Shown one piece after another: positions 38,873-56,747 of a stretch of DNA of 64,000 bases. Source of the stretch: Calditrichia bacterium (GTDB taxonomy: Bacteria > Calditrichota > Calditrichia > JAJRVZ01); contig CAVZSQ010000019.1 in NCBI GenBank assembly GCA_963777955.1, forward strand, positions 416,001 to 480,000. Direction: 5' to 3'. The translations under genes were made by a program, and so were the position numbers. The notes beneath the pieces were generated by a model that worked only from the letters and a program-made list of their open reading frames with translations, was not told the origin of the DNA and ran no database searches. Every line of letters begins with the position of its first letter. Positions within the stretch are counted from its first letter, which is position 1.

Positions 38873-38943
38873 TCTTTGTCCCTTTGTCCCTTTGTCCCTT
38901 TGCCTGCCCTTTGTGCCTTTTCTTTACTCTTTACCCTTTGTCC
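38873..38943. repeat. CTTTGTCC octamer tandem array overlapping the cytochrome 3' end
   Basis: CTTTGTCC x3 plus degenerate copies. Confidence 0.75.
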
Positions 38944-40180
38944 TCATGAATCTGATTATTTCTGCCATTTCTTTTATCTCTGCTAAATCTCTTACCATCT
39001 CGCTCCAGCCATACCACAGCGAGTAATCGGGATTGGCATGAAAAGCACCCTGGAACAGACGCATGCGGTGCTGCAAATGCATTACAAACAAGCGCTGTTC
39101 AATGGGCGTGGCGGCATCATGAAAGGTTAACAGATCGGGAAAATCAAATTTATATGCCGCCGGCTTTTTTAAGATTCCTTCCTGATATAAACCTGCCACG
39201 ATTTTAATTGCCTCAGCCAGCAGGCGGTCGCCATTTTCTATAGTTTTATCTGCTTTGTTTAATTCGGCTTTGGCAAAATTTTCAGAATGGCATTGAGTGC
39301 AGGTCTGGATCATTTTCGTTCGTTCACGGTCGAAAGTTTCGGTACTCAAACGGGCCACATCGGCATTTCTGACCAGATCCAGACGGCCGGTCGGATTCCC
39401 CTGTGGATCCAACACCCCCAGGGCCTGTAAAATCGTTACGCGGTCTTTCCACCATGATTCGCTCTCGCCCGGATAGGGAGCAAGTCCGTTAGTACGCACG
39501 GCTAAAAAACCCCAGGCGGTACGCACTTCATGATTCCCTTCCTGCATGTGACAGGTCTGGCAGGTCGGGGCAGCGGAATTTTCGGGAATCCGGCCCGACA
39601 CTTTCAAGGTGTGGCGCACTCCGTGTTTGGATGATGAATACATTTCCCATTGCGGATGATCGAAGCCCATATGGCAGGTCTGGCACGCCTCCGGCTGGCG
39701 GGCTTCATCGGCCGAAAACAGGTGCCGGGTGTGGCAGGCGTCGCAGGAAGCACGGCCGAAGCCGGCTCCTTCTTTATTCAATTCTTTTAAATCGGCTCCG
39801 GATTTGATACCGATTTTATGACAACCCCCGCAACCTTTGATCCCTTCGATCAGTTCCATAGGCTGCCAGTGAATGGTGGGCATGGCATACATGGCCGCCC
39901 AGGCCAGGGCATGCTTTCCTTTTTTAAATTGAGTCACCTGCTGCTCATGGCAATCGGCACAGGTTTCGGGTAGGGGGATCATCACCTTGCTGACATCGGC
40001 AGCAGACATGTGCAGTTCACCATGACAGACGGAACAATCGACATTATTTTTGCTGTGCTTGCTCAACTGCCAGTCTGTGACGATGCCCGGTGTTTCGGTC
40101 TGGTGACAGGTAATACAATCAACCGCCTGTGCAATGGAAAAAGTTGCAGCAATCAAGAAAACAACAAATACTTGTTTCAT
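38924..40180 (-). CDS. Octaheme c-type cytochrome, hydroxylamine oxidoreductase-like family
   Basis: Signal peptide; eight CxxCH motifs; CHTRHLFS, CHMGFDHPQWEMY..SKHG, HANPDY. Confidence 0.88.
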   Translation of the reverse strand: MKQVFVVFLIAATFSIAQAVDCITCHQTETPGIVTDWQLSKHSKNNVDCSVCHGELHMSAADVSKVMIPLPETCADCHEQQVTQFKKGKHALAWAAMYAMPTIHWQPMELIEGIKGCGGCHKIGIKSGADLKELNKEGAGFGRASCDACHTRHLFSADEARQPEACQTCHMGFDHPQWEMYSSSKHGVRHTLKVSGRIPENSAAPTCQTCHMQEGNHEVRTAWGFLAVRTNGLAPYPGESESWWKDRVTILQALGVLDPQGNPTGRLDLVRNADVARLSTETFDRERTKMIQTCTQCHSENFAKAELNKADKTIENGDRLLAEAIKIVAGLYQEGILKKPAAYKFDFPDLLTFHDAATPIEQRLFVMHLQHRMRLFQGAFHANPDYSLWYGWSEMVRDLAEIKEMAEIIRFMRTKGKE

Positions 40181-40377
40181 ATATACCCCTCTGCTGAATA
40201 ATTACACTGGAAATCTTAGCCAAGATTGTAATTACCGGTATTTTTTCTGAGTCCGGTAGTAAAGTTATCATTGTAATAAATACCACGTTTAAATGAATTA
40301 TAAATCATGAAGTGAATAATAAATATGCTGAATTTACAGTAAAAAAAGTTGATTATAAATATTTATAACAGGATAGA

Positions 40378-41106
40378 CTAATGCGATAAAACAACACAGA
40401 TGTTTTCAGACAGGCAATGATTATATTCCGCCAAGGTTAAATTCCCGAACCAGCTGACTTTATTAAAACCATTGTCAGCAGCTAATTGGGATAGTTCAGC
40501 GGATTGTAACGGATATAATTCATTGGAGATCTTGCGTTTCCCCAGGGGTGTTTCAATGCTGATAGTGAACAGTATGGTAGATTTCAGATATTGATATGAG
40601 CGGGTATATTTGTGGTCACCATGCTCTTTGACCGAGAATGTCTGCGGTTTTTCTTTTAGTATTTTGTCGTAATTCATTAACTGCAGAAAGACATACCCGT
40701 CCGGTTCCAGAGCCCGCCTGAAATTCTGCAAGACATTACGGCGCTGAGCAGCAGTCAGCAGATGCGCAAAACTATTGCCCAAACAGAAAATTGCGTCAAA
40801 TTTATTTTTGATCTGCCGGTTGAAATTTAAAAAATCAGCATTAATAAATTCCGGAGTAACCTGCCACTGCCGTGAATTTTCCCGTGCTTTTGCCAACATC
40901 GCTGCCGAGTTATCAATGGCAGTTACTTTTTTCCCGAGCAGGGATAATACAATACTGTGGAAACCCGTGCCACAACCGGCATCCAGTATATTTTTCGCCG
41001 GAAACCGTTTGAATATTTCACGGAAAATTTCAGTCTCTTTTTCCAGACGATCACTGAATCCGATCATCTGATCGTATGCGCCAGCCAGTTGAGTGTAAAA
41101 ATCCAT
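40378..41106 (-). CDS. Class I SAM-dependent methyltransferase
   Basis: ILDAGCGTG, IDNS..ML, FDAIFCLGNSFAHL. Confidence 0.88.
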   Translation of the reverse strand: MDFYTQLAGAYDQMIGFSDRLEKETEIFREIFKRFPAKNILDAGCGTGFHSIVLSLLGKKVTAIDNSAAMLAKARENSRQWQVTPEFINADFLNFNRQIKNKFDAIFCLGNSFAHLLTAAQRRNVLQNFRRALEPDGYVFLQLMNYDKILKEKPQTFSVKEHGDHKYTRSYQYLKSTILFTISIETPLGKRKISNELYPLQSAELSQLAADNGFNKVSWFGNLTLAEYNHCLSENICVVLSH

Positions 41107-42207
41107 TTAATCCTCAGATGTATAGTCCGCCACTTCGCCGCGATTGTGTCCATAAACCGGTTTATCGATCTCCTGAATCCTTTTGCGGTATTCGGCAGCA
41201 CTTATGCTGTTTTGCCAGTGTCCGCTGAAGCGGGCGAGCAGGAAACCGGCAATAAAAATACCAAGTACCAGAAATCCAAACAGCCAGGAGGGGATATATG
41301 TTTTCGATTTTCTACTGAACTTAAATTGAAGTGTATCCGCCACCGGACAGGCATCGATGCATAGAGCACAGGCAGTACATTCATCCGAAATAATACGCAG
41401 TGGTTTATGAACCGTGATTAAATTAGGACAAACTCTGGTGCACCTGCGGCAATCCGTGCAGGTAACCGGATTGCGGGTGACTTTGACCGGACTGAACAGA
41501 CTGAGAAATCCCAGCAGCGCTCCGTACGGACAGAGATAACGGCACCAGAAATTTTTAATAACTATTGAAAGCAGAATCAGCACGGCCAGAGTCCAGAAGG
41601 CAAATGAAGATAATTCGGTAAAAAACAGTAACATCTTAACATCGGCTACTTTATTGTAAGGACTGTAGATGAATTTCTGCACCCCTGCGGCATCCATCTG
41701 CCACAGGATAGCGTACAGGAAAAACAACAGTAATATATATTTCAGGGACCTTAAGGGAATATCGAGCCATCCGGGCAGGCGCATATTTTTGCTGAAAAAC
41801 TTTTTCCCCACTTGCCACAGGCTTTCGGACAGCAAGCCGACCGGACAGATCCAACTGCAAAAACTTTTTTTCAAAAAGAAACCAAGCAACAGGATGATAA
41901 TCAACAGCACCAGCCCGGCAGGATGAATGTCATTGAATACTCCGCTTAAAAGCCAGTGCTTCAGGCTGATCAATGAACTGATCGGCAGGAATCCTTCTAC
42001 CCCCGGCGGCCGGCCAAGATACAGACCCTGCTCCCCCTGCTGATAATAACGGACAAACAAGTAAAACTCAAACCCAACCCATAATACTACCAGCAGGAAT
42101 CCTATTTGTATGTATAGCCGTACTTTTTGACCATCATGCTTCAAACCGGTCCAGTACTCTTTAATTCTCTGTAAATATTTCCTTGTAAAGATTTTTTTCA
42201 TGTTCAT
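41107..42207 (-). CDS. NapH/YccM-like membrane polyferredoxin
   Basis: FCSWICPVG, WCRYLCPYG, CTDCRRCTRVCP, CTACALCIDACP; several TMs. Confidence 0.9.
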   Translation of the reverse strand: MNMKKIFTRKYLQRIKEYWTGLKHDGQKVRLYIQIGFLLVVLWVGFEFYLFVRYYQQGEQGLYLGRPPGVEGFLPISSLISLKHWLLSGVFNDIHPAGLVLLIIILLLGFFLKKSFCSWICPVGLLSESLWQVGKKFFSKNMRLPGWLDIPLRSLKYILLLFFLYAILWQMDAAGVQKFIYSPYNKVADVKMLLFFTELSSFAFWTLAVLILLSIVIKNFWCRYLCPYGALLGFLSLFSPVKVTRNPVTCTDCRRCTRVCPNLITVHKPLRIISDECTACALCIDACPVADTLQFKFSRKSKTYIPSWLFGFLVLGIFIAGFLLARFSGHWQNSISAAEYRKRIQEIDKPVYGHNRGEVADYTSED

Positions 42208-42234
42208 TATCAAATAAATCGTATCATATATTTA

Positions 42235-42258: not shown

Positions 42259-42378
42259 ATAGTCTGGTTCATTTTATGAGGCAAGAAAATTTTATTAATT
42301 GTTATCTTTTCTAGTACTAATAGTCTGCATTTTGTGTAAAATTAATGTTTTATGATGATACTTTTTGAAAGGAAAAAT

Positions 42379-43792
42379 ATGACTCCAAAAGCATTTTTTG
42401 AATTTGCCAAAAGGGCTAAAGCCGAAATGGTTGATCTGAAATTTACCGACCTGCTGGGTACCTGGCAGCATTGTACCTTTCCTGTCGAGACCTGGGATGA
42501 AAAAACATTTGTCGAAGGGGTTGGATTTGACGGTTCTTCCATCCGCGGCTGGCAGGGTATTCATATGTCCGATATGCTGGCGGTTCCGGATTCCAACAGC
42601 ACTAAACTGGATCCGATTTTCCGGGAACCCACTGTCAGCGTCATCGCCAACATTGTCGATCCCATTACACACGAAGACTATTCCCGCGACCCCCGTCACG
42701 TGGCCCGCAAGGGTGTGGAATATCTGCGACAGACCGGGATTGCCGATCTCTGTCAGATTGGTCCGGAACCGGAATTTTTTATTTTCGATGAAATTCGCTA
42801 TGAACAAAATCAACACATGGGTTTATACCAGATCGACTCTGTCGAAGGCGCCTGGAATACCAACCGTATCGAAGAACCCAATCTCGGCTATAAACCGAGT
42901 TTTAAAGGGGGTTATTTTCCAGTCAGTCCTACTGACACTTATCAGGACCTGCGCGGCGATATGGTCAATACCCTGCGCAAGCTGGGTATTGTCTGCGAAG
43001 CGCATCATCATGAAGTAGGCACCGGGGGACAAAGCGAGATCGATATACGTTTCACCGACCTGTTGACCATGGCCGACCAGATGATGTGGTACAAATACAT
43101 TATCAAGAATATTGCCCGCAATGCCGGTAAAACAGTTACCTTCATGCCCAAACCGATTTTTGGGGATAATGGCAGCGGCATGCACACCCATTTTTCATTG
43201 TGGAAAAAGAACAAACCTCTGTTTGCCGGAAATGATTATGCCGGTTTGAGCGAGATGGCCTTGCATGCCATCGGCGGAGTAATAAAACATGCAGCCGCCA
43301 TATCTAGCTATCGCCGCGCCTACTACCAATTCCTACCGCCGCCTGGTACCCGGTTTCGAAGCCCCGGTAAACCTGGCTTATTCCCAGCGCAACCGCTCGG
43401 CCTCGGTCCGTATACCAATGTATTCCCAAAATCCCAGGGCCAAGCGCTTTGAATTTCGTTGCCCCGATCCAAGTTGTAATGGTTATCTGACTTTTACTGC
43501 TATTCTCATGGCGGTACTGGACGGTATCCAGAACAAAATGCATCCGGGTGATCCGCTGGATCGCGATATTTACGAAATGTCACCGGCAGAGTTGGCCCAC
43601 GTGCCAAAAGTACCGGGGACACTGGGAGAATCTATGCAGGCGCTGCAGAATGATCATGAGTTTCTGACCAGAGGGGGAGTCTTTACGGATGACCTGATCG
43701 AAACCTGGATAGATTACAAACAGAAAAATGAACTGCATGAACTGTCCATGCGTCCCCATCCGTATGAATTTTTTCTTTATTATGACAGTTAG
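42379..43792 (+). CDS. glnA: Glutamine synthetase type I; frameshift at about 43303
   Basis: [72 protein letters not shown]. Confidence 0.96.
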
Positions 43793-43815
43793 AGAGTAGC
43801 CTGAATTATTCGCTA

Positions 43816-43856
43816 GCCACCTTCGAGGTCTGGAGAATCTCGAAGGTGGTTTTTTG
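43816..43856 (+). terminator. Rho-independent terminator after glnA
   Basis: CCACCTTCGAG...CTCGAAGGTGG followed by a T-run; GTGCCTCA-type octamers follow. Confidence 0.7.
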
Positions 43857-43959
43857 CCTCAGTGCCTTAGTGCCTCAGTACCTTTTTTTCCACATTTCAT
43901 TTGTGTCTTCTCTCTGCAAAGTATAATTTAAACTTTAATCATTGCGATTTTAACTAAAA

Positions 43960-46900
43960 ATGCCTAATAAATCTTTTACTCTTCTAGTTTGTATTTTCTT
44001 TATACTGCTGTCCGCTATGGTAATCGCCGAACAGCCTGCCGACAGTACGTTCTCGGTCATCTTCCGGCACCGGCAGTCACGGGAATATGTACCTGATATA
44101 AGAGACGCTGCCGGGGTTGCCTTCAGGGATATCAATGATGATGAATTACCCGATCTCTACATAGTCTGTATCCGGGGAGATAATCATCTGCTGCTGAACA
44201 GCGGTGCTTATCGTCCCTTCAAAGATGCAACTGCACTGTCCGGCCTGGATGGCAATCCGCGTCCCAGGGGATTTTATAATATGGAAACCGGGACCAATAC
44301 TTACGATCAGAAATTCGGTACCAACATTTGCGATCTCGACAATGACGGGGATGGGGACATCCTGATTGCCGGTTGGGGTATTGCTACCGCCCTTTACCGG
44401 AATAACGGTAATCTGCAATTCAGAAATATAACCGATCAACTGGAATTATTTCCCCCCATCAATGCCAACCAGTTTTATGCGGCTGATCTAGACAACGACG
44501 GTTTGCTGGATCTGTTACTGACCGATGAAAATCACGGCGTCAGGCTGTTACGCAATTTAGGCGATAACTTTTTCCAGGATATTACTTCCGGCAGTGGATT
44601 GGATACGGTCAGCACGGCCCGTTCGGCAGCATTTTGTGATTTTGATAACGACGGAGACGCAGATCTGTATCTGACCCGCTACAATAAACCGGATCAAATG
44701 TACCGTAATTCAGGTGATGGCCGCTTTATACCCCTGCCGGCCTTCCTGGCCGTGCTGCGACAGAATCTACCCTCTACCGGAATTAAGCTGGGGAGATATC
44801 GATAACGATACTGATCTGGATTTCCTGGTTACAGCCTCTGATGGCCACAACCGGTTATATCTGAATCAGACTGCACCCGGCGATTCCAATTGGATTTTCA
44901 GCGAATTCAACCCGCTCAGTGACGGGAAGTACCTTTTCCCCTCCTACGGGAGTATAATGGCTGATTTTAATAACGATGGCCTGCTTGATATCTTTATTGC
45001 CAATAGAGGTCCGAATGAACTCCTGTGGCAGCGCTCTCCGCTTCTATTTGAGCAAAGTTTTGAATATTCCCCGGCTATCGTTAGATCTGCGACTCCGGCC
45101 GGCAGCCGCAGTGCAGTGTGCGCTGATTTTGATCTGGACGGTGATCTGGATGTGTTTGTTACCAATCTGGATACTTTCTGCGTGCTTTATCAGAACATGA
45201 CCAACACTTCATCTTTTATAAAATTCAAATTAACCGGTACCATTTCCAACCGCGATGCAGTGGGAGCCAGGATTGAATTACACCCGCCGGCGAATGATAA
45301 AGAAATAATTGCCATCCGTGAGATCAATGGCGGCGAAGGGTATCTTTCCGCCAACGAACCGCTGGTACATTTTGGACTGGATACACTGACCCGGGTTGAT
45401 GCGACCATTCGTTTTCCCGGAGGCCGGATTATCAAGGCACAGGGACTGGCCGCCGGTCAGGTCCACCAGATCTATGAGTACGCCCTGCTGGAGCGTTCCT
45501 TTATTCAATTTTACCAGCATTTGTTGAGCCTGATGCGTCAGACTGTTTTCTGGTATCAGGTCATTCTGGCCCTGTTATTCTTTATGTTGATTTTTGTCTT
45601 TGTACGGCTGGGCTTGAAGCGCTACCGTTGGAGTCCCGGAGCAGCGAGTGGTTACCTGGTAGGATTTTTTATTTCAGCACTGATTGCGATTACGGCCTTA
45701 AAGAAACTTGGCTTGTTGACCATCTATATCACCATCGATATACTGACGATCCTGTTTATTATTATTTCCATCATTAACTCGGAGCGTCTGTACCGTCTGC
45801 GCAGCATCCGCGAAAGATATCGTTCGATTCTGATCGACCTGAGCAACCAGATTGTCAATATTCATGATAATGACGAGTTATTCCGAACCGTAATCGAAAA
45901 CATTCTGCAGATAACCGAATTTGATACCATCGTTATATTGGCACTTGATCGCAGTGAAAAAAATGTGGAGAACGTATTATCACGGGGAGTCGAGGTCGGA
46001 CCTCAGGATCCCGGTGCGCAGCAATGCTGGCCGGAATTTCTCCCGGCCATGCGGATTCATAAACATATACAGAAGAATTTTCACCGCAATTATATCCCTC
46101 TGTTCAGTTTACTCGGTGCGGAAGTCATCTTAAGTATTGAAAGAGGCACCAGGATATACGGTTTACTATCTCTAGGCGCCCGGCACCCGATCAGTCCGCT
46201 TAAACGGGAAGATCTCGAATTATTCAAATCCTTGTGCAATCAGATGGCCGTGGCCCTGGAAAATAATGAATACATTCACCGTTCCACCGAAATGATCAAG
46301 CGCTTAACTGCCGCTGAAGTACAGGAAAAATACCTGAAGGAACTGGAAGCAGCCTATACAGTTCTGGATTCAAAAAACCGCGACCTGCAGCAGCTGTACG
46401 ATGAGTTGAAGAATACCCAGGCACAGTTGATTCAGGCTGAAAAAATGGCTTCCCTTGGTCAACTGGTAGCCGGCATATCGCATGAAATAAACAATCCGGT
46501 CGGATTTATTTATTCCAACGTCAAGCAACTGCAACAGTATACCCAGAGGATTGAAAACTTTATTGCCCGGCAATCCGAGGCCGATCAAATCAAACAGATC
46601 CTGCCCGATATAAAGAACCTGATCGAAGATACGATCACCGGCAGTAAAATGATCAAAGAACTGGTCAGCGATCTGCGTAGTTTTTCACACCTCGATCAGG
46701 CCAAGTGGCAAATGTTTAATATACATGATGGTCTGGAGAACAGCATTAAGATCATGCTGACCCAGTTCAAGCATCACCTCACCATCCAGCGCAGTTTCCA
46801 CGCCGCAGGTGCACTGGAATGCAATCCCGGTCAACTTAATCAGGTTTTTCTGAATCTATTGACTAATGCGGCACAGGCTATTAAGGAAGAAGGTACCATT

Positions 46901-47161
46901 TGGATAGAAACTGAGGACCTGCGGCGGCAGAACTCCCTGGTTATCCGGATCAGGGATAATGGCATCGGTATGCCTGCTGAAACGGTCAATAAAATATTTG
47001 ATCCATTCTTTACTACCAAGGACGTTGGTGAAGGAACCGGCTTGGGTTTGAGTATCAGTTATTCGATCATTAAAAATCACGGCGGCAGCATCGAAGTGAC
47101 CAGCACTCCCGGCAAGGGCAGCACGTTTACGATCACCCTGCCGTATAAAAAAACTTCGTAG
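43960..47161 (+). CDS. Membrane histidine kinase with extracytoplasmic FG-GAP propeller + ASPIC/UnbV domain, 3 TM, GAF, HisKA-HATPase; frameshift at 44785-44786
   Basis: Signal peptide; seven DxD/NxDxxxD repeats; NRDAVGARI..GGEGYLS..VHFGL; SHEINNP, NLLTNA, DNGIG, FTTK..G.GTGLGL; removing one A gives TGISWGDIDND. Confidence 0.88.
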
Positions 47162-47270
47162 GCACGATAAATGCGCCCCCGCGAACACAATAATAAATCA
47201 TGTTTCGTATTTAAACTTTACCCACATTCCTACGTACTATCTTTTATAGAACGGGAGGGATTATCGGATC

Positions 47271-48360
47271 ATGACCAATTCGAAAAGCAGAGACGCCGAG
47301 CCGAAATTATTCAAAACATTTTTTGATGATATAAACCGGGTAAATATCCGGCGTTCTTTTAAAACCGACTGGAATGAGTTAAAGGAATTTTTTATAACCG
47401 AGCAGCGCAAAAAAAAATTACTGCACATGTCCCGGTTCCGCCGCTGGTTGTATACCGTCGGCTGGATGTTAAAGGGCCTTTTTCTGCGTCTGACCCCTTT
47501 TCGCCGACTGACTGCTGGTAATTGCCACTTTTTGCTTACTGATCTCCCAGAACACACAAAATAATCAGAATAGCCTGATATTTATAGGGCTGCTGATATT
47601 ACTCTTTATCTTAATGCTGGAACTCAAAGACAAGTTACTGGCTCATGAAGAATTAGAGGCCGGCCGGGCGGTGCAACAGGCTTTATTACCGGAATCGAAA
47701 CCTGCCATTCCGGGCTGGCAAATCTGGCTATCCACCTCACCGGCTTACGAAATTGGCGGAGATCTGGTGGATTATATTCCTTTTAATCGGCATCATGCCC
47801 TGGTGCTGGCGGATGTATCGGGTAAAGGACTGGCCGCAGCCCTGTTCATGGCCAAACTGCAGGCTACCATCCGCGCCCTGGTTGCCGATGTTTCCGATCT
47901 GACCACGCTGGGAAGAAAAATCAATTCCATTTTTTATCGTGATACCCGCCGTCAGAGTTTTGCTTCCCTGCTGCTGATCGGTCTTGGATCGATCCCGGGA
48001 AAAATAAATTTGCTGAATGCCGGACATCTGCCGCCGCTGCTGATTCAAAACGATAAGATTGTAGAACTACCTAAAGGTTCAACAGCAATTGGACTGGCTG
48101 CCGGAACAGTTTTTGCCGAACAGGAGATTACACTCCAGCCCAACGATATTTTCCTTGGCTATACCGATGGACTGGTCGAATCCCGGAATTCCGCAGGAGA
48201 ATTTTTCGGAGAGGAACGATTAAGAAATTTACTGTACGATTTTGCCCATCTTTCGCCGGAATTGCTGGCCCAGCGAATATTCGATACAATCCATGACTTC
48301 GTCAATGAAACAGCCAAGCATGACGATCTTTCCCTGGTTATAATTAAACGTATCGCTTGA
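47271..48360 (+). CDS. Membrane-anchored SpoIIE/PP2C phosphatase; frameshift at about 47511
   Basis: Two TMs after the join; IGGDLVD, LADVSGKG, NAGHLPP, YTDGLVE, DDLSL. Confidence 0.88.
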
Positions 48361-48425
48361 TTATTATTCCTGCCCTGATTAGGTTTAAACAGACTATTGG
48401 CACTTAATCATTCTAATAATCGGCT

Positions 48426-49859
48426 ATGAATAAAGATACTATTCTTATAGTTGATGATCAGCCGGAAATCCTGAATGCCCTGGAACGTCTGTTAAAAGAA
48501 GAATATCAGATACTGACGGCAGCCAGTGGTTCAGCTGCCCTGGAAATCCTGGCTAAACAACAGGTAACCGTCATTCTGGCCGATCAGCGCATGCCCGGGA
48601 TGACCGGCGTCGAATTTTTTTCCCGGGCTCTTGAACAGCAGCCGGATACCATAAGAATCCTGATCACGGCTTATGCCGACATCACCGCTTCCATTGATGC
48701 TGTCAACCGCGGACAGATATTTTATTATATTTCCAAGCCATGGGAACCGGAAGAGTTGTTACTGATTGTACGCCGGGCCGTGGAAAAATTCCGCTTGCTG
48801 CGCGAGAATAAAGAACTGAATCAAAAATTACATGAAGCAAATGTACAACTGCAGCAGGAAAATGTTTTGCTCAAACAGAGTATCACCCGGGAATATGATT
48901 TCAGCAGCATTATCGGTCACGCTCCGCGGATGCTGCAGGTGTTCAAACTGGTTTCCCGGATTATCGATACTTCCACCACCGTATTATTGCTCGGTGAAAC
49001 CGGAACCGGCAAGGAGTTGATCGCCCGGGCCATACACTTTAATGGCCCCCGTAAGGGTGAACTGTTTGTGGCCCAGAATTGCGGTGCCCTGCCGGATACT
49101 TTGCTGGAGAGTGAACTTTTCGGTCATACCCGCGGATCCTTTACCGGGGCAGTTGCCGATCGTAAAGGTATTTTCGAACTGGCCGACGGCGGAACTGTTT
49201 TTCTGGATGAGATCGCCGATACTTCCCCGGCACTGCAGGTACGCCTGCTCAGAGTACTTCAGGAAGGGGAAATCAAACCGGTTGGCGGTACCAAAACGAA
49301 TAAAGTGGACGTACGGGTAATCGCGGCGACTAACAAAAATCTGGAACAAATGGTCAGTGAACACAATTTCCGTGAGGATCTTTATTACCGCCTGAATGTA
49401 TTTCCGATCATTCTACCGCCTCTGCGCGAACGCCGTGATGATATCAGCGACCTGGTAAATCATTTTGTTATTAAATATGCCCAAAAGATCAATAAGAACA
49501 TAACTGCCATAACCCCGGAAGCTATGCAATTGCTGATACAGGCTAATTTCCCCGGCAATATCCGTGAACTGGAAAACGAAATTGAACGGGCTGTCACCTT
49601 AACCGACGATAACTCTGCCATAACACCCGAAGTTCTGTCAACCCGCTTCCACCAGTCGCAAATATTTTCGCTACCCGAGAAAGACATTTTACAGCGCCCC
49701 ATGAAAGATCAGGTGGAAGAACTGGAAAAACACATGATTCTGCATGCCCTGCGGGAAACACATGGCAACATACTGCATGCGGCTGAAAAACTTCATCTTA
49801 GCCGCGCCGGCCTGCATAAAAAAATTAACCGTTATAAACTCCCCGTCAAAGTAAAGTAA
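48426..49859 (+). CDS. Sigma54-dependent response regulator (REC-AAA+-HTH)
   Basis: VDDQ, ADQRMPG, KPW; GETGTGKE, ESELFGHTRGSFTGA, FLDEI, FPGNIRELEN; HTH. Confidence 0.95.
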   Translation: MNKDTILIVDDQPEILNALERLLKEEYQILTAASGSAALEILAKQQVTVILADQRMPGMTGVEFFSRALEQQPDTIRILITAYADITASIDAVNRGQIFYYISKPWEPEELLLIVRRAVEKFRLLRENKELNQKLHEANVQLQQENVLLKQSITREYDFSSIIGHAPRMLQVFKLVSRIIDTSTTVLLLGETGTGKELIARAIHFNGPRKGELFVAQNCGALPDTLLESELFGHTRGSFTGAVADRKGIFELADGGTVFLDEIADTSPALQVRLLRVLQEGEIKPVGGTKTNKVDVRVIAATNKNLEQMVSEHNFREDLYYRLNVFPIILPPLRERRDDISDLVNHFVIKYAQKINKNITAITPEAMQLLIQANFPGNIRELENEIERAVTLTDDNSAITPEVLSTRFHQSQIFSLPEKDILQRPMKDQVEELEKHMILHALRETHGNILHAAEKLHLSRAGLHKKINRYKLPVKVK

Positions 49860-49894
49860 ACATAGTTTACACACAACTGTAAACAGTGTTTACA
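49855..49894. promoter_or_regulatory. Tandem palindromic enhancer (UAS) sites for a bacterial enhancer-binding protein
   Basis: AGTAAACATAGTTTACA (49855-49871) and TGTAAACAGTGTTTACA (49878-49894), centres 23 bp apart. Confidence 0.75.
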
Positions 49895-49978
49895 TATTTC
49901 TATTCAGAATAGATTTATTGTTGTATATTTTTATATGTAACTTCAATAAAAACAATACACATACATATTTTAATTATC

Positions 49979-49994
49979 TGGCACGCTAATTGTA
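49979..49994 (+). promoter_or_regulatory. Sigma54 -24/-12 promoter
   Basis: TGGCACG-CTAA-TTGTA (consensus TGGCACG-N4-TTGC; one mismatch at -12); AT-rich spacer to the UAS. Confidence 0.75.
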
Positions 49995-50042
49995 TATTTA
50001 TTTTCCAGTAGTTATAATAAAGGAAGTAAAGGAGTAAATAAA

Positions 50043-51312
50043 ATGAAAAAACAAAACTGGTTCCTAACCTTAGCCGTAGTGATGCTGGCTAGTTTTGCCC
50101 TGGTGGGGTGTTACACCAGATTCGGCTTCGTTCATCAGGAAACCGGTTATGAAGATGAAGAGACTTTATGAAGCGGAAGTTGCTGACGAAGCTGAAATCG
50201 GTGAAACCGACGATGTCCCTTGTTGTGATGACAGGTATGACCATTATTATGTCCGCGATCATTATTTCTATGATCCCTGGTGCTGGGAGCCCGGATTTTA
50301 CGTTTCGGTAGGTTTCGGCTGGGATTATTTCGATCCGTACTGGTACTATCCTTACTATTATTATCCATATCGTCCTTACTACCACTATCCCTATGTGGCT
50401 TATCCTTATCCGTTTGTTTATCCATGGGGTTATCCGGTCTGGTACTATGAGCCCGATTATAACTATGCTTACAACTATGAACGCCGGCCCTTTGTAAAAC
50501 GGGGACAGTATCTGCCGGCCAGACGGGGAATGGATCTTAACGAGCGAATGGAATTGGCCAACCGGCCCGGACGCCGCGTGGGAGTTACCGATCGTAATCG
50601 CGAACTGGTCTCCGGCAACATCAGAACTGCTGATATCAGCCGCGATAATAACCGCGATAGAATTTCCGCCCGCAGTGCAGCAGTCAAAACTCGTGAGAAA
50701 GACAATACTGCTACTCGCGCCAAATCTACGACGACCGCAGTCGGGGAACGACGGGAAGTCACCAATTCAGGAAATCGCGAAACTACCCGGCGCAATGGCA
50801 AAGAAACTACCACTACGACCAGGGAAAATACGGGAAAGAGATCTGCGACGACGACAACAAAACGTACTGATTCATCATCGACAAGAGTGAATAAAGTAAA
50901 TAATAATACTCATGATTCAAATAGCGGCAACTCTTCAGTGAACGGACGGTCCAGTGTGACGCGACCGGCTTCAGGATCTAACAAAAATTCTTCCGGTTCC
51001 GCTAACTCTTCAAGATCATCAAACTCCTCAAACGGAAATTCCAAGGTCACCCGTTCCAATTCCGGTTCAAGCGATCGTTCAGCTGGTTCCCGCAGCAGCA
51101 ATTCCTCAACGGTTACCCGTTCCAGTTCCGGTTCGGGTAAAAGTTCCTCGAGTTCAGGCAGAAGTTCTTCCGGTTCCAGCGGCCGTTCCTATTCAGCCCC
51201 GTCCAGCAGCCACGGTAGTTCTTCCTCGGGCGGCAGCCAAAGTTCCGGCAGATCAAGTTCAGGTAGTTCAGGTGGATCAAGCAGATCCGGTTCAGGCGGA
51301 CACAGACGCTAA
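50043..51312 (+). CDS. Lipoprotein with Tyr/Pro/Trp-rich core and Arg/Thr/Ser/Gly low-complexity tail; frameshift at 50165-50167
   Basis: AAGGAG RBS; MKKQNWFLTLAVVMLASFALVG-C lipobox; joins EDEETYEAEV if one T is removed. Confidence 0.82.
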
Positions 51313-51344
51313 GAGCCCGAGTCAATATAATGGAGAAAATTAAA

Positions 51345-52721
51345 ATGAAAAAGTATATAACTCTGCTAATCATGGCCTTCGGCCTGCTGCAATGGTGCCT
51401 GGCTCAATCCCCGCAAGAGGCAGTGAATCTGCTGGATAACGAAGACGGAGTGGGCGCCAGAGCTCTGGGCATGGGTAATGCTTTCAATGCTGTGGCTGAT
51501 GACTATACAGCCACGTACTGGAATCCGGCCGGATTAACCCAACTGGACTATAATGAAATCTCAGCCAACCTTTCCAATTTACGGTTTGAGAATGAAGCCT
51601 TATTCCATAATACCACTACTCTGGATAATCGCAGCTGGGCAAAATTTCATTCCTTTGGCCTGGCTTATAAATTCCCGACCACCCGCGGCAGTTTTGTACT
51701 GGGTTTTGGTTTTAATCGTTTCAAAAATTATAATGACTTCCTGTCCTTTAACGGTTATAACCGCAACAGCAACGGCCTGGAATTTGAACTGGAGGATGAT
51801 TTCGGGGAGTACCAGTACTATCCGTTTGATCAGGATGTGCAGCAGAATGAAACGGTCAGCCAGGACGGCAGTTTAAATGCCTGGACCCTGGCAGGCGGTA
51901 TGCAGTTATCACCCACTTTTTCTCTGGGCCTGGCTATCAATGTATATACCGGTAAAAGCGAATACCTGCTGGATTTCAACCAGGAAGATGTGGATAATAT
52001 CTATAATCAGTACCCGGGTGATTTCAATTATTATGAACTGCATCAGCAGATCCTGACCGATATGTATGGTTGGGGTCTCAAAGTGGGCAGCTTGATAAAA
52101 GTGACCCCGCAACTGAATCTGGGCTTTACCGTCGAATTTCCGACCACCTTGCATGTAACAGAAACTTACGCCGCCAATGATCTGCTGGAATTCGACGACG
52201 GATATATCAGCGAACTGGATCTTGGCAGCGGCGAATGGGAATACCTGGTCACTTATCCCTATAAATTCAGTGCCGGTGCCGCTGTGAACCTGAATCTCTT
52301 TAAACTGGCCGGTTCTATTGATTATCGCGACTGGTCGCAGGTTCGTTTTGACATACCGGACGGATTCGCACTGGATGAATACTACAACGATTTATTGTAT
52401 GAGAATCAAAATTTTCCAGAACAATTCAAATCGGTGCTTTCTTATTCAGCCGGAGGCGAAGTACGTATTCCCGGTTCGCCGTTACTGCTCAGAGGCGGAT
52501 ACCGCTTTGTGCCCTCCCCTCTGCGTGAAACGAATCCTGATCTGGACCGTAATTATTACAGTGCCGGTTTGGGGTATGATATTGATGGATCTACTTCTCT
52601 GGACGTAGGCATGACCTGGGGCAAAATCAAACGGCAAAGCGTCGATTCCTATACTCCCGGCGGAACCGATGAATCGATTAGCACCACCCGGGTCCTGGCG
52701 GGAGTTACATTTAGGTTGTAG
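51345..52721 (+). CDS. OmpP1/FadL/PorV-like outer-membrane beta-barrel
   Basis: Signal peptide; GARALGMGNAF.AVADD.TA.YWNPAGL; DWSQ, LRGGY, SAGLGY; C-terminal VTFRL. Confidence 0.88.
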   Translation: MKKYITLLIMAFGLLQWCLAQSPQEAVNLLDNEDGVGARALGMGNAFNAVADDYTATYWNPAGLTQLDYNEISANLSNLRFENEALFHNTTTLDNRSWAKFHSFGLAYKFPTTRGSFVLGFGFNRFKNYNDFLSFNGYNRNSNGLEFELEDDFGEYQYYPFDQDVQQNETVSQDGSLNAWTLAGGMQLSPTFSLGLAINVYTGKSEYLLDFNQEDVDNIYNQYPGDFNYYELHQQILTDMYGWGLKVGSLIKVTPQLNLGFTVEFPTTLHVTETYAANDLLEFDDGYISELDLGSGEWEYLVTYPYKFSAGAAVNLNLFKLAGSIDYRDWSQVRFDIPDGFALDEYYNDLLYENQNFPEQFKSVLSYSAGGEVRIPGSPLLLRGGYRFVPSPLRETNPDLDRNYYSAGLGYDIDGSTSLDVGMTWGKIKRQSVDSYTPGGTDESISTTRVLAGVTFRL

Positions 52722-52724
52722 TAC

Positions 52725-52816
52725 AGGGACAAAGGGACAAAGATACAAAGGGACAGAGAAATAAAGTCAATCATATCCAGCACTTTGTCCCTTTGTCTCT
52801 TTGTCCCTTTGTATCT
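52725..52816. repeat. Inverted pair of octamer arrays (GGGACAAA)n / (TTTGTCCC)n
   Basis: About four units on each side of a roughly 25-nt spacer. Confidence 0.8.
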
Positions 52817-52854
52817 TCTTAGAACACCCACAGGCATTCTCTGCCTGAATCCAT

Positions 52855-52891
52855 AAAGCATCCGCTGATTGCGCGCAGCGGGTGCTTTTTT
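52855..52891 (+). terminator. Rho-independent terminator
   Basis: AAAGCATCCGCTG...CAGCGGGTGCTTTTTT; a second long hairpin follows (about 52897-52941). Confidence 0.65.
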
Positions 52892-53018
52892 ATCTGACCA
52901 CCCTCCGAGTTGCTCCTGGAGCAACCGGATCGGAGGTGGTTAATGAACTATTTTCCAAATATTTTTAGTTTAAATTTTAGCAGATTCATAGGATTATTAT
53001 CTAAGGAAAGACTAAATT

Positions 53019-53483
53019 ATGTTCAATAATCTCAAAACAACTTTCGATCAACTGGATCTGAAAATAGTACGGTTTATGTCGACCTACGGTCTCAAATCGC
53101 TGCGCATCAGCCTGGGTATTATTTTTTTCTGGTTTGGATTCTTGAAATTCTTTCCACATCTCAGTCCGGCCCAGCAACTCGCTACCGCCACCATTTCCAG
53201 ACTCACCTTCGGCCTGGTCTCCCCGGCTACTGCTCTGTTCCTCCTGGCCTGCTGGGAAACCATGATCGGTATCGGTCTTATCTTTGGCTTCTGGATGCGG
53301 TTTATCCTGTTTTTACTTTTTATGCAGATGCTGGGCACCATTACTCCGCTGTTTCTTTTTCCGGCCGAAACTTTTTCGCATATTCCCTATGCTCCTACTT
53401 TAGAGGGACAATATATTATTAAAAATATCGTGTTGATCTCCGCGGCACTGGCCCTGGGGGCGACAGTGCGCAAACCCTCCTGA
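53019..53483 (+). CDS. DoxX/YkgB family membrane protein
   Basis: LRISLGIIFFWFG.LKF, E..IG.GL, PTLEGQYIIKN. Confidence 0.85.
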   Translation: MFNNLKTTFDQLDLKIVRFMSTYGLKSLRISLGIIFFWFGFLKFFPHLSPAQQLATATISRLTFGLVSPATALFLLACWETMIGIGLIFGFWMRFILFLLFMQMLGTITPLFLFPAETFSHIPYAPTLEGQYIIKNIVLISAALALGATVRKPS

Positions 53484-53626
53484 TCAGCACCAAATCCGGA
53501 TTTACGCCAGTGTAATAATAATTATCTGGACAACGGTCGAAATTTCTTGTAATATATTATAGTAGATCTTCCTATCCTTCACGTACTTATTTACTTGAAG
53601 ATTAATGCTATCATAGTACCAAAAGA

Positions 53627-56065
53627 ATGATAAAAATTTCAAAACGGATCGGTTTATACCTGGCTATAAACCTGGTCATACTTATTGTTTGCTTCCTGCA
53701 TTTACCGGCGGTTTTAAACCGTCCTATGGTTCCCTTCCATATAATTAAAACCGGTCAGGGTCTGATTATCGATAAAATAAATGATCCCCTGGCCAGCGGT
53801 GAATTGCAGATTGGCGACCGGGTAATTGCCTGGGATAAGCAGTCTGTCAATATTCCTGAGGTTACAGAATTCCTGGGCGAAATGTCAAAAATCGGAAATA
53901 ACGTTACTATTACTTTTCAACGGCAGGTCATAACCGGCACGACTGCCATAACCCTGATCCCCTTTCATCATACTCTTCGTTATATATTCATTATTTTCTT
54001 CGTCGGCCTGATGACCTGGGGCGTGGCAATTTTTGTTTTACTCAAAGGTCCGCCTGCACTCAGCACCACGGTTTTGCATTGGATCATGGCCTCTTTTGGA
54101 TTTGTGATCATGTTGACCACGGGGGTCATCGACCAGGACAGTATATTCTCATATTTGACCCGCTCTTTATTCCTGATTTTTTATATGACCACTGCCAGTG
54201 GTTTGTTCTTTTTTTCCGCCATATTTCCCAAACAAAAGTCGGTAATCAGTAAGGCAATTTCCATCTTCATTCCGGCCGCTGTTTTTACTGCCTTACTGAT
54301 TTTTTATATGCTGCGGGCTATATATTATTACTCGGTAATTGAGTACGCCCGCTTTCAGTTCTTGTTCAATATTTTCCATATATCCCTCTATATTTTTATC
54401 GGCGGAAGTTTAATTAATTTTTTTCATGCCTATTACAGCAGCAAACAGGTTGACGATCACCTTCGCTTGCGTCTGATTTTCTGGGGAATACTGCTTGGTG
54501 CCGCACCATTTTTATTACTCAGCATTCTGCCTCAAATCCTGGGCCGCAGTGAATTGATCCGCGAGGAATTCACTCTCATTTTTTTCCTGTTCATTCCGTA
54601 TGCCTTTGCCCTGGCTATTCTCAAGTATCGTCTGCTGGACATCGACCTGATCATCAATCGTATTCTGGTTTATGGTTTACTGACTTTTTTTCTCGGTGCC
54701 ATCTATATCCTTACGGTCCTGATGGTAATTTCGGTAATCGGTGGTGAAATCGTATTCGACGATTATCTGTTCTTATTGCTGACCACTCTGTTCGTGGCAA
54801 TTATCTTTAATCCTCTGCGGCGGGGTTTACAGAAAATAATCAACGATCTGTTTTTTTCAGCCAGGGAAAATTACCGTCAGGCGGTTCATGCTATCAATAC
54901 CGATCTGGAAAACTGCTGGAGCAGCGATGCGCTGTTCCGGCAATTGATTAACAGTTTGAGCCGTTTTGTACCCAATCAGCATCTGGCTTTATTCCGGGTC
55001 GTGGAAGACACACTGCAGTTGCAGTATTCCTCCCGCAGCGATACTCCACGGCAGTTCTCCTTTCCGGGTATAAACCTGCAGCAGTTAATTTCAACCGGGC
55101 AGATTCATGCTTTACCGAAATCAGTTTATCTGCACCCGGAACAGGTGGATTTTGCGCAGAGCGATTTTTTACAGCAGATTAATTTCCCGGTATGTATACC
55201 GCTGCTGACCAAAACATCTTATTTTAAAGGTATACTGTGTGCTACGCCGTACCATAACCGCTTCATTGCCGCCGAGTTGGATTTATTGCGCACCGCCTGC
55301 CTGCAGGCCTCGGAAATACTGGACCGGCTGATCTTACAGGAACGCATGATCATCGAGCGGGAAGAAAAAAATCGACTGAAGGAAATCAGTTCTTACATCA
55401 TCTCGCTGGTAGCTCATGAATTGCAATCACCGCTTACTTCCATCCGCTTATTTTCCGAAATGCTGTCGCAGCAGAATAAAAACTTATCCGCAGAACACCG
55501 GGAATACCTGGAGACTATAAATAATGAAACCATGCGCCTGTCACGACTGATTAAAAACGTTCTGGACTTTTCCCGGATCGAACGGGGCCTTAAGGAATAT
55601 CACTTCGAAATATTAACACTTAACCGGTTGGTTGAGCATACGTTGAATCTATTTAAACAGCAACTGCAGCAAGCTGGTTTTCAACTGGAGCTGGCTCTGA
55701 CCGAGCAGGATACTACTTTGCGGGCCGATGAAGATGCTTTGATTTCAGCCCTCGGAAACCTGATCGTCAATTCGATCAAATATTCACCGGCAGAGAGATA
55801 CCTGGCCATCTCAACCCGTTGCCAGAACCAGCACATTCAGCTCTGTATCAAGGATAAAGGTATCGGTATTCCTGAGACAGAACAGAATCTGGTATTCGAT
55901 GATTTTTACCGTGCAAGCAGCAGCCAGGTACAATCATTAAGCGGGCTCGGGCTGGGTTTAGCCCTGGTTAAACGCATTATTGTCGCCCACCATGGTGAAA
56001 TCAGACTGGAGAGCAGGCCCGGGCAGGGCACGACATTTACAATCACTTTACCAGCGGGAGTCTGA
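53627..56065 (+). CDS. Histidine kinase: periplasmic PDZ-like domain, multi-TM region, GAF-like, HisKA-HATPase
   Basis: LQIGDRVIAWD (PDZ-like); AILKYRLLDID; AHELQSPL, NLIVNSIKYS, DKGIGI, GLGLGL. Confidence 0.88.
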   Translation: MIKISKRIGLYLAINLVILIVCFLHLPAVLNRPMVPFHIIKTGQGLIIDKINDPLASGELQIGDRVIAWDKQSVNIPEVTEFLGEMSKIGNNVTITFQRQVITGTTAITLIPFHHTLRYIFIIFFVGLMTWGVAIFVLLKGPPALSTTVLHWIMASFGFVIMLTTGVIDQDSIFSYLTRSLFLIFYMTTASGLFFFSAIFPKQKSVISKAISIFIPAAVFTALLIFYMLRAIYYYSVIEYARFQFLFNIFHISLYIFIGGSLINFFHAYYSSKQVDDHLRLRLIFWGILLGAAPFLLLSILPQILGRSELIREEFTLIFFLFIPYAFALAILKYRLLDIDLIINRILVYGLLTFFLGAIYILTVLMVISVIGGEIVFDDYLFLLLTTLFVAIIFNPLRRGLQKIINDLFFSARENYRQAVHAINTDLENCWSSDALFRQLINSLSRFVPNQHLALFRVVEDTLQLQYSSRSDTPRQFSFPGINLQQLISTGQIHALPKSVYLHPEQVDFAQSDFLQQINFPVCIPLLTKTSYFKGILCATPYHNRFIAAELDLLRTACLQASEILDRLILQERMIIEREEKNRLKEISSYIISLVAHELQSPLTSIRLFSEMLSQQNKNLSAEHREYLETINNETMRLSRLIKNVLDFSRIERGLKEYHFEILTLNRLVEHTLNLFKQQLQQAGFQLELALTEQDTTLRADEDALISALGNLIVNSIKYSPAERYLAISTRCQNQHIQLCIKDKGIGIPETEQNLVFDDFYRASSSQVQSLSGLGLGLALVKRIIVAHHGEIRLESRPGQGTTFTITLPAGV

Positions 56066-56066
56066 C

Positions 56067-56747
56067 ATGAAGAAAATACTGATCATTGAAGACGATCCCA
56101 CAATTTCCAAAGGTTTACAGATCAGTTTGCAGGCCGAGCATTATGATATTCTGACCAGTTCCAGCGGCGAAAAAGGATTTCAGTTAGCACAGCAGGAAAA
56201 TATCGATCTGATTATCCTTGACCTGATGTTACCGGGAAAGAACGGAGAGGAAATTTGCCGGGATTTGCGGCAAAAAGGCCTGCGCACGCCCATCCTCATT
56301 CTGACCAGCCGCAGCGAAGAGATCGATAAAGTTTTGTTGCTGGAAATGGGCGCAGACGATTACATGACCAAACCTTTCGGGATTCGCGAATTGCAGGCCA
56401 GGGTGAAAGTCCTGCTGCGCCGGGGCAGCGAAATACGTGCCCAGATCGAAACATATTCTTTTGCCGATATCAATCTTGATTTTATCAAGCAGGAAGCCAG
56501 CAAGAAGAAAAAACCGTTACAACTTACCACCAAGGAGTTCGAGATCCTGCATTTCTTTATCCAGCATGAAGGACAGGTGATCAGCCGCGATGTACTTTTA
56601 GATGAAGTGTGGGGTTATGAAGTTTTCCCCACTACCCGCACTGTGGATAATTACATTCTCGCCTTGCGAAAAAAAATTGAAGCAGATTCAACCCAGCCCA
56701 GACACCTGCTGACGATCCCCAAAGCCGGTTATAAGTTTGTGAAATGA
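56067..56747 (+). CDS. OmpR/PhoB family response regulator
   Basis: IEDD, LDLMLP, GADDYMTKPF, LTTKEFEIL, VWG..TRTVDNYI..LRKKIE. Confidence 0.95.
   Translation: MKKILIIEDDPTISKGLQISLQAEHYDILTSSSGEKGFQLAQQENIDLIILDLMLPGKNGEEICRDLRQKGLRTPILILTSRSEEIDKVLLLEMGADDYMTKPFGIRELQARVKVLLRRGSEIRAQIETYSFADINLDFIKQEASKKKKPLQLTTKEFEILHFFIQHEGQVISRDVLLDEVWGYEVFPTTRTVDNYILALRKKIEADSTQPRHLLTIPKAGYKFVK

Follow-up and report, generated by a model that had tools for sequence, protein, structure and literature searches.

We examined a 64,000-nucleotide stretch of a Calditrichia genome, hereafter the window (positions 416,001 to 480,000 of contig CAVZSQ010000019.1, assembly GCA_963777955.1), which belongs to contig C19 of a 4.24 Mb genome that is 92% complete. 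Between positions 43,960 and 52,891 the original prediction, made from the sequence alone, had seen a candidate regulatory circuit of five co-oriented genes, coding for a sensor kinase, a membrane PP2C phosphatase, a sigma-54 activator, a lipoprotein and an outer-membrane barrel. All five genes are present, with the domains described, and the paired palindromes, the AT-rich spacer and the -24/-12 element claimed for the interval between the activator and the lipoprotein were all located, as was a terminator-like hairpin after the barrel gene (Table 1). Across the class, however, the conserved unit consists of four genes: the kinase, the activator, the lipoprotein and the barrel.

Table 1. Features of the gene cluster, in window coordinates.
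Feature	Position	Strand	Details
Terminator-like hairpin between glnA and the cluster	43815..43851	+	15 pairs, T-run
Sensor histidine kinase	43960..47161	+	FG-GAP_3, UnbV_ASPIC, GAF, HisKA, HATPase_c; extra base at 44783
Membrane PP2C/SpoIIE phosphatase	47271..48360	+	SpoIIE domain; extra base at 47512
Sigma-54 activator, HoxA/HupR type	48426..49859	+	REC, Sigma54_activat, HTH_8
Distal enhancer palindrome	49855..49871	.	overlaps the activator stop codon
Proximal enhancer palindrome	49878..49894	.	consensus TGYWAAC-N3-GTTWRCA; 23 bp from the distal palindrome
AT-rich spacer	49895..49978	.	17% GC
Sigma-54 -24/-12 promoter	49979..49994	+	TGGCAC-N5-TTGTA
Lipoprotein	50043..51312	+	lipobox LVG-C; extra base at 50163
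FadL-family outer-membrane barrel	51345..52721	+	Toluene_X/FadL; 14 strands, NPA motif, N-terminal plug
Terminator-like hairpin 3' of the barrel	52855..52888	+	hairpin

As had been proposed, the kinase, PP2C and lipoprotein genes are each broken by a single extra base that has no counterpart in the contigs of close relatives. In four contig runs from such relatives, which cover the stretch in part, the extra base is missing from three in the case of the kinase, from two in the case of PP2C and from one in the case of the lipoprotein. Since the relatives' contigs lack the extra bases, and since the same-genus genome G043 has an unbroken kinase (1080 residues) and an unbroken lipoprotein (451 residues), the breaks are most likely sequencing insertions. 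Orthologues without breaks were used for the analysis of the broken genes.

The class, with 86 genomes in eight families, served as the comparison set; these genomes are related to one another, so that the counts given here are not independent. A strong full-length match to the barrel was found in 82 of the 86 genomes, and a kinase orthologue was accepted in 79, a count that leaves out a paralogue in G048 (24%) and a weak fragment in G056. Both genes occur in 77 genomes and share a contig in 46, where the kinase lies at most 10 kb upstream of the barrel and on the same strand in 41; the distance is 13-15 kb in two of the remaining genomes, and the two genes are far apart in three. Among 41 barrel loci that we mapped, chosen from the better-scoring matches, the order kinase, activator, at most one small gene, lipoprotein and barrel was found in 23, and the activator stands directly before the lipoprotein, or one gene off, in 33; several of the remaining loci stop at a contig edge. 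Twenty further stretches added eight full clusters, together with real splits in which the kinase, or the kinase and the activator, lie elsewhere. A scan of the genome contigs recovered the same-genus locus alone. Genome G048 (88% complete) yielded neither a kinase nor an activator orthologue with these queries and shows no promoter or enhancer motif; its best receiver match is 35% identical, as against 51-55% in the activator orthologues. The rpoN gene was found in 83 of the 86 genomes. A gene-neighbourhood search had been proposed along with the original prediction, and in it the kinase homologues proved mostly syntenic with the activator and with the lipoprotein-barrel pair. Of the predicted five-gene order the four-gene core thus stands (synteny in 41/46), but the PP2C gene falls away, since no mapped locus other than those of the window and G043 has it in the kinase-activator gap. 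Synteny, motif conservation, the presence of rpoN and the joint absence in G048 all bear out the predicted pairing of a cognate kinase and activator with a sigma-54 promoter for the lipoprotein-barrel pair. At the level of sequence, the circuit is class-wide across the Calditrichia.

Named homologues of the kinase are mostly from Calditrichota, and Caldithrix abyssi DSM 13497 has a canonical orthologue. The few other labels on metagenome-assembled genomes (Marinimicrobia, Caldisericaceae, Methanobacteriota) may reflect mis-binning, and we claim no range beyond the phylum. The tree of kinase homologues was quick and unfinished, and cannot place the unlabelled homologues in phyla; a metagenome scan with the kinase alignment drew on kinase-core words, returned generic kinases and was uninformative on range.

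The control region was scored in 39 of the 41 mapped loci, two being dropped because the contig cuts the lipoprotein start, with the patterns TGGYN-N6-TTG for the promoter and TGYWAAC-N3-GTTWRCA, at up to two mismatches, for the enhancer. The promoter pattern is kept in 37 loci, at least one enhancer site in 38 and at least two in 35, compared with 23 (promoter), 35 (enhancer) and two (both) among 390 shuffled controls; the patterns were derived from the same loci as those counted, so that these figures are partly circular. When nine later loci were added, six passed a stricter test and three had the promoter with weaker sites. The sites cluster at about 112-115 and 136-139 bp upstream, and lie at 100 and 123 bp in the window. 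Weight matrices built from 36 other genomes, with the window's own genus excluded, ranked its paired sites plus promoter first of 48 rows in the genome, which argues that the window site is not a chance match. The -12 element of the window reads TTGTA, as against TTGCA in the textbook form; across the class, these promoters typically have TTGWA. In three genomes (G006, G057 and G059) the lipoprotein-barrel pair has moved away from the activator, which lies elsewhere in the genome; the sites and the promoter stay with the pair. An exact tandem-site pattern run over the 86 genomes gave two matches and was too strict. Compared with an integration host factor consensus, the spacer contains two-mismatch matches only, and no such site is claimed. 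A scan for sigma-70-type promoters was at chance level (21 against 16.1 +/- 3.5), and an Rfam scan of positions 43000-54000 gave no match.

A second candidate target was found at C22:330343-328740 (-) (L001:6738-8350), where a perfect enhancer site is followed 78 bp downstream by a -24/-12 element. The gene behind it codes for a 438-residue exported protein without a Pfam family, and site and gene are kept in G043 (L201) only, among ten genomes of the family. Apart from this candidate, the regulon is small as judged by these motif searches. In family f8 (L045, L046, L047, L048, L053, L056 and L057) some 300 nt separate the promoter from the lipobox, and the lipoprotein frame has an extension of 60-80 residues, with a common hydrophobic motif, ahead of the signal peptide; this extension is possibly a leader or a membrane anchor.

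The activator has the parts of a REC-type sigma-54 enhancer-binding protein, namely a receiver (REC) domain with the motif DQRMP, an AAA+ domain with a GAFTGA-type loop and a Fis-type helix-turn-helix, and the promoter, the paired upstream sites and rpoN complete a sigma-54 enhancer-binding system. The loop reads GAFTGA in 29 of 34 orthologues and GSFTGA in the other five. The same orthologues, with one exception (33 of 34), retain the recognition helix SRxGL[HQ]K, in keeping with the constancy of the enhancer site. The best match of the receiver in the PDB is HupR (2JK1), with 117 bits; DctD reaches 69 and NtrC 56. The receiver is 39-47% identical to HoxA proteins (105-117 bits), whereas AtoC, ZraR and the best paralogue in its own genome reach 47-77 bits. 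Among the top full-length plasmid matches to the activator are three checked proteins in hydrogenase clusters, including a gene of pHG1 between maturation genes and the regulatory hydrogenase; for the matched genes we use the names HoxA and HoxJ on the strength of gene position rather than annotation. A 28-row activator tree unites 11 orthologues with three HoxA proteins, as sister groups, in one clade (support 100) that excludes AtoC, ZraR and 12 paralogues. A second tree places the kinase core beside HoxJ and 14 generic metagenome kinases and separates it from AtoS, ZraS and 19 paralogues of its own genome (support 99). Both trees are quick FastTree runs with sparse outgroups. The NtrB/NtrC label of the original prediction is not supported: the NCBIfam models fall below threshold (NtrC, 383 against a cut-off of 559 bits; NR(II), 89 against 240), and the groupings are with HoxA/HupR and HoxJ. 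On these comparisons, the closer counterparts of the activator and the kinase core are HoxA/HupR and HoxJ, and not NtrC and NtrB. Excerpts of one study (PMC10073562) describe unphosphorylated HoxA as the activating form, HoxJ as inactivating HoxA, and sigma-54 as required. By analogy, the earlier assumption that the kinase switches the activator on may be backwards, and we lean slightly towards the view that phosphorylation switches the window's activator off.

The kinase consists of a signal peptide, a seven-blade FG-GAP propeller, an ASPIC/UnbV domain, three transmembrane helices, a GAF domain, a coiled coil, a HisKA domain with the H-box HE[IL]NNP and a HATPase domain. In hydropathy profiles of 22 orthologues, nearly all show the three transmembrane helices after ASPIC, and most have a hydrophobic stretch at the N-terminus as well. 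The propeller and ASPIC are thus predicted to lie outside the cytoplasm, in the periplasm, and the GAF and kinase domains inside, as in an inner-membrane kinase. The surface-contact sensing that had been suggested does not agree with this predicted topology, since a sensor in the periplasm would have no direct contact with an outside surface. A seven-blade FG-GAP propeller followed by ASPIC/UnbV is the arrangement of the CRTAC1/ASPIC-UnbV family, and murine CRTAC1 (9ETN) was the only sequence match of the sensor profile in the PDB (E 7e-33). A model of the sensor from genome G060 (predicted local distance difference test, pLDDT, 90; predicted template-modelling score, pTM, 0.92) shows seven blades and a beta-sandwich, and superposes on 9ETN with a template-modelling score of 0.76 at 20% identity; the next fold matches, other propellers such as GlcNAc lectins, integrins and the BT4663 sensor, score 0.41-0.49. 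By Pfam, an unbroken orthologue does not have the combination of Reg_prop/Y_Y_Y with kinase, receiver and AraC domains that marks the Bacteroidota hybrid sensors.

The propeller and the kinase core are conserved alike (0.59 and 0.56-0.65). Family-specific sensor motifs (YGV, FRxxNR, GWG, DEH, SQG, NWF, YSTG and NKD) fall, in the model, at the starts of strand A and at the turns between B and C and, by general propeller geometry rather than by coordinates, would line the face opposite the DxDxDG loops. The window's own family, f1, departs from this pattern: in the two orthologues scored, 32 of 130 and 28 of 132 otherwise fixed sensor sites are changed, against 1-11 in 20 others, as are 11 of 93 and 4 of 94 fixed sites in the kinase core, against 0-11 in the others. 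Two more members of f1 are also without most of the sensor motifs (f1: window 43960-45200; L075, L037, L184, L185). The sensor residues suggest that f1 probably changed or lost the ancestral ligand, which makes the window's kinase gene an atypical member. In bacteria at large, the sensor profile matches 23,100 CRTAC1/ASPIC-UnbV representatives at E up to 1e-30; among the best 150, 16 have a kinase motif and the rest are mostly long proteins with several matched stretches. We know of no established ligand for the bacterial proteins of this family.

The lipoprotein begins with a lipobox, followed by an acidic stretch, a Tyr/Trp/Pro-rich block and a long tail of Ser, Arg and Gly whose end is basic. 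An alignment of 35 lipoproteins has no invariant columns besides those of Cys-Tyr-Thr, and the order of the blocks is conserved without conservation of their sequence (38 of 39 proteins, with 21-35% Tyr+Trp in the aromatic block and a tail charge of +25 to +69). No Pfam or NCBIfam family covers the protein, and a search of the ESM Atlas with residues 1-200 returned unnamed clusters at 0.94 and no named family. The six residues after the Cys mostly include fewer than two acidic residues; the surface export signal of Bacteroidota, according to excerpts of PMC12578637, has at least two within that span, a rule that may not apply to Calditrichota. A related pair of genes is present in Parabacteroides distasonis (WP_008779584/WP_008779585), whose barrel aligns with ours end to end (hhalign 99.6%, E 6e-25). 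The P. distasonis pair has the same gene order, and its barrel partner the same acidic, aromatic and Ser/Arg/Gly blocks ending in RR, but, unlike the Calditrichota lipoprotein, no lipobox. Upstream of this pair there is no -24/-12 or enhancer match, and within 7 kb no kinase or activator. Because this homologous pair lacks the sigma-54 motifs, the lipoprotein-barrel pair appears probably older than its sigma-54 regulation. The P. distasonis pair is presumably of the PG1625/PG1626 type. PG1626 bears the annotation 'putative hemin receptor' and counts among the signature proteins of Bacteroidetes in PMC1887533, and appears among hemin-responsive genes in PMC10470040.

As modelled (pLDDT 90), the barrel is 14-stranded, with an N-terminal plug and an NPA motif, and its PF03349 score of 67, against a cut-off of 29.7 bits, assigns it to the FadL/OmpP1/TodX group. 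PorV and BamG are protein-handling relatives of FadL. The top Foldseek match is BamG (9hiv_F), and Z scores are 34.7 to CymD and 34.0 to FadL. Structural alignment ranges make the mature N-terminus about 6-9 residues longer than that of FadL, which may correspond to the extension of BamG. The BamG model NF053685 matches over the full length at 51 bits, against a cut-off of 250, whereas PorV (NF033709, 41 against 90 bits) and PorQ (NF033711, 20 against 220) match at the N-terminus only, and FilD, a FadL-type pilus component, gives a weak NCBIfam match. Searches of the PDB with the barrel sequence, also as a profile, gave no match, although the PDB holds a BamG-containing entry. The description of the barrel as PorV-like is thus not supported, given the PorV model score and the plug; the barrel is of the FadL/BamG fold and is neither BamG nor PorV. 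Look-alikes of it are labelled KSB1, Fidelibacterota and Ignavibacteriota. The best BamG match of the genome, at C17:145838-146948 (-), also stays under the cut-off; it is in two pieces (109 and 58 bits), probably split by another assembly frameshift. According to excerpts of PMC12578637, the conserved N-terminus of BamH wedges into BamG, an extension of BamG fills its lateral opening, and this N-terminal extension separates BamG from the transporting FadL channels.

Several loci vary in gene content. In families f3 and f5 (L042, L043, L064, L067, L070 and L073) a 156-residue protein is encoded between activator and lipoprotein; its DxNGT motif is presumably HAD-like. A gene for a 240-residue, barrel-like outer-membrane protein lies inside the operon, between lipoprotein and barrel, at L058:9199-9921 and L059:6107-6829. 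In G048 (L040:7658-11377) two tandem Cys-Tyr-Thr lipoproteins precede the barrel, behind another exported protein. Families f7 and f8 have a second full-length barrel paralogue of about 35% identity (e.g. G070:C17, G073:C18 and G082:C1:1735959). In G042 (L034:4167-7418) the gap between kinase and activator has taken up genes whose motifs suggest a glycyl-radical-like enzyme together with its activating enzyme.

We favour, with somewhat more confidence than doubt, the explanation that these genes form a dedicated two-component circuit, conserved across the Calditrichia and controlling one outer-membrane module. From topology and conservation we infer that the kinase would hold its CRTAC1-type propeller in the periplasm, where the face opposite the Ca2+-type loops would bind an envelope-derived ligand. 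A peptide or protein is the leading candidate for this ligand, though short of an even chance, with a glycan or cell-wall fragment close behind and any other ligand less probable. The kinase would very probably exchange phosphate with the neighbouring activator. By kinship with HoxJ/HoxA, phosphorylation would hold the activator off and the cue would lower kinase output, a step that we regard as only marginally the better guess. In all likelihood, to judge from the motifs, the paired palindromes, some 100-140 bp upstream, are where the activator binds in order to open the sigma-54 promoter in front of the lipoprotein and barrel genes. The chances seem evenly balanced that the barrel acts as a plugged dock rather than an importer, binding the lipidated Cys-Tyr-Thr end as in BamG-BamH, and also that the docked, disordered acidic/aromatic/cationic chain maintains or remodels the envelope at the outer membrane. 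The PP2C gene would be a bystander insertion. A more far-reaching version, which we hold to be rather unlikely, would see a CRTAC1/integrin-like propeller receptor that monitors the envelope through an inverted HoxJ/HoxA-style circuit with no link to hydrogen, and that controls an ancient machine of the Fibrobacterota-Chlorobiota-Bacteroidota (FCB) group. In that machine, a plugged FadL-type barrel would anchor a condensate-like disordered chain (aromatic and Ser/Arg) at the outer membrane, as a second BamG-BamH-like module with its own role in outer-membrane biogenesis.

Several observations weigh against the favoured explanation, and some of them lend strength to its rivals. The kinase is unlinked in G064, G062, G077 and G024, so that its pairing with the activator rests on majority synteny; the motif counts have the circularity noted above, and three later loci have the weaker sites. 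Members of f1 lost 28-32 of about 130 fixed sensor residues while Cys-Tyr-Thr of the lipoprotein stayed, which argues against the sensor reading Cys-Tyr-Thr. The activator of the window has GSFTGA in place of GAFTGA. As to polarity, 14 unrelated metagenome kinases of the large subfamily that includes HoxJ outscore HoxJ itself, the two trees are as sparse as stated, and the AAA domain taken by itself does not favour HoxA over AtoC (51-53% identity to HoxA proteins, 54% to AtoC). Most REC-type sigma-54 activators are active when phosphorylated, and the kinship with HoxA is strongest in the receiver, where the residues in common are not known determinants of polarity. The canonical scheme assumed in the original prediction, in which ligand binding would activate the kinase and phosphorylation would enable the activator to drive the operon, is therefore a credible alternative, but to our mind the less probable one, given the receiver scores, the fully supported sister grouping with HoxA and the failure of the NtrC and NtrB models. 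Nor does the PP2C gene change the picture much. In the window and G043, which belong to a family with a diverged sensor, it runs in the same direction as its neighbours at close spacing, and it could work as a fifth component to tune the circuit, for instance by dephosphorylating the Ser-rich tail or a regulator. PP2C domains, however, act on cytoplasmic Ser/Thr, which leaves Asp and exported proteins out of their range. The gene is missing from the gap in all other mapped loci, its N-terminal part matches 34 of the 86 genomes, on other contigs or far away in 32 of them, and unrelated genes occupy the same gap in G040, G041, G042 and G074, which marks the gap as an insertion site. We consider this role very unlikely.

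The function of the outer-membrane pair may be read in other ways. Structurally the barrel is tied between FadL/TodX transporters and BamG (Z 32-35; PorV, 27), and it retains the NPA motif, which leaves room for transport and weighs against a dock. The barrel could thus import a hydrophobic compound, as FadL and TodX do, with the propeller sensing that compound or its product and the lipoprotein serving as capture factor. The FadL fold, the existence of propeller-sensing kinases that induce uptake genes (BT4663), and the hemin annotation and hemin-responsive listing of PG1626, in the excerpts cited, speak for such uptake. We think it unlikely nonetheless. The gene maps, which give sizes and strands only, show no conserved catabolic gene next to the cluster; the barrel, with matches in 82 of the 86 genomes, looks more like a core envelope gene and may have the N-terminal extension that sets BamG apart from transporting channels; and the composition of the lipoprotein indicates no folded binding domain. 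The composition of its blocks would also suit a sticky, Tyr-rich, cationic, disordered polymer displayed for adhesion and induced at surfaces or in biofilms; the weak FilD match and the title of one study, which ties sigma-54 to the cell exterior, point the same way. With a sensor that is periplasmic by topology, an acidic export signal mostly missing by a rule that may not apply, and a Parabacteroides partner without a lipobox, we judge adhesion to be quite unlikely. Finally, the Foldseek and full-length NCBIfam matches, together with the reported occurrence of BamG in six of seven other FCB phyla (excerpts of PMC12611786), might suggest that the barrel is the BamG of Calditrichota and the circuit a stress response that raises a subunit of the beta-barrel assembly machinery. 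This is highly improbable in view of the score far below cut-off, the better match on C17, the PDB searches that missed the BamG-containing entry even with a profile, and a partner without a BamH-type domain.

Around the cluster, the glnA gene (42352-43792) is likewise split by one extra base, at 43304, which is missing from the contig of a relative. A role in nitrogen control, which the adjoining glnA might suggest, was rejected: a terminator lies between, the NtrB/NtrC models fail and the upstream neighbours vary (glnA homology was not searched elsewhere). Further upstream, 38924-42213 (-) codes for a multiheme cytochrome c, a methyltransferase and a 4Fe-4S membrane protein. Short intergenic repeats at 52724-52810 and 43855-43880, with core words present 41 and 24 times in the genome, resemble repetitive extragenic palindromic elements. 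Downstream, 53019-56747 codes for a DoxX protein, a GAF histidine kinase with several transmembrane helices and an OmpR-type regulator; these genes have the same sizes and order in G043 and were not seen at the other loci.

No description of the circuit was found in the literature searched, which left most subscription journals outside its coverage, and a term search of the C. abyssi genome paper (PMC5317091) gave no mention of it in the parts covered. To this extent, the suggestion that no system with this combination had been described holds. The circuit is apparently undescribed and built from known kinds of parts, a variant of sigma-54 two-component systems. Its interest lies in the CRTAC1-type receptor domain, the possibly inverted logic and the unexplained barrel-lipoprotein pair, and it offers a way to learn the function of both the sensor fold and the outer-membrane pair. 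With a CRTAC1-type domain tied to a kinase and a defined promoter, a reporter could be used to screen for the ligand. If the polarity is inverted, HoxA/HupR logic would extend beyond hydrogen sensing. The barrel and its disordered partner are an uncharacterised clade, and their regulation points to the conditions in which they are needed. The analysis also gives a well-supported sigma-54 enhancer motif, and the TTGWA variant of the -12 element, for a phylum without such regulatory work in the literature searched.

Among known systems, HoxJ/HoxA of Cupriavidus necator and HupT/HupR of Rhodobacter capsulatus come closest in the type of receiver, in the activator (43% identity over its full length), in the recognition helix SRxGL and in the HELNNP-type kinase core (37%); sigma-54 dependence is known for HoxA. 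Unlike HoxJ, the Calditrichota kinase is predicted to be a membrane protein with a periplasmic propeller and a GAF domain and, unlike HoxBCJ/HoxA on pHG1, the cluster has no regulatory hydrogenase or hydrogenase targets, as judged by domains and neighbours. NtrB/NtrC, AtoS/AtoC, ZraS/ZraR and PrsK/PrsR likewise combine a kinase and a REC-AAA+-HTH activator with a paired enhancer and a -24/-12 promoter, but all their NCBIfam models score below cut-off here, and AtoC/ZraR and AtoS/ZraS fall outside the Calditrichota-Hox clade in both trees. Murine CRTAC1 (9ETN) has the same fold across propeller and ASPIC, with DxDxDG-type loops, whereas the Calditrichota sensor is fused to three transmembrane helices, a GAF domain and a kinase, and has family-specific motifs on what would be one face. 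The Bacteroidota hybrid sensor BT4663 (4A2L; template-modelling score 0.45) also uses a periplasmic beta-propeller and beta-sandwich as kinase input, but its propeller is of another family, and the output of the Calditrichota kinase would be a separate sigma-54 activator rather than a fused receiver-AraC. BamG-BamH, finally, resembles the pair in its 14-stranded FadL-family barrel, possibly also in the N-terminal extension, and in an adjoining lipoprotein whose lipidated N-terminus is the most conserved part. The Calditrichota barrel, in contrast, is below the BamG cut-off in a genome with a better BamG candidate elsewhere, and its partner is of low complexity rather than folded, in a pair that would be driven from a sigma-54 enhancer.

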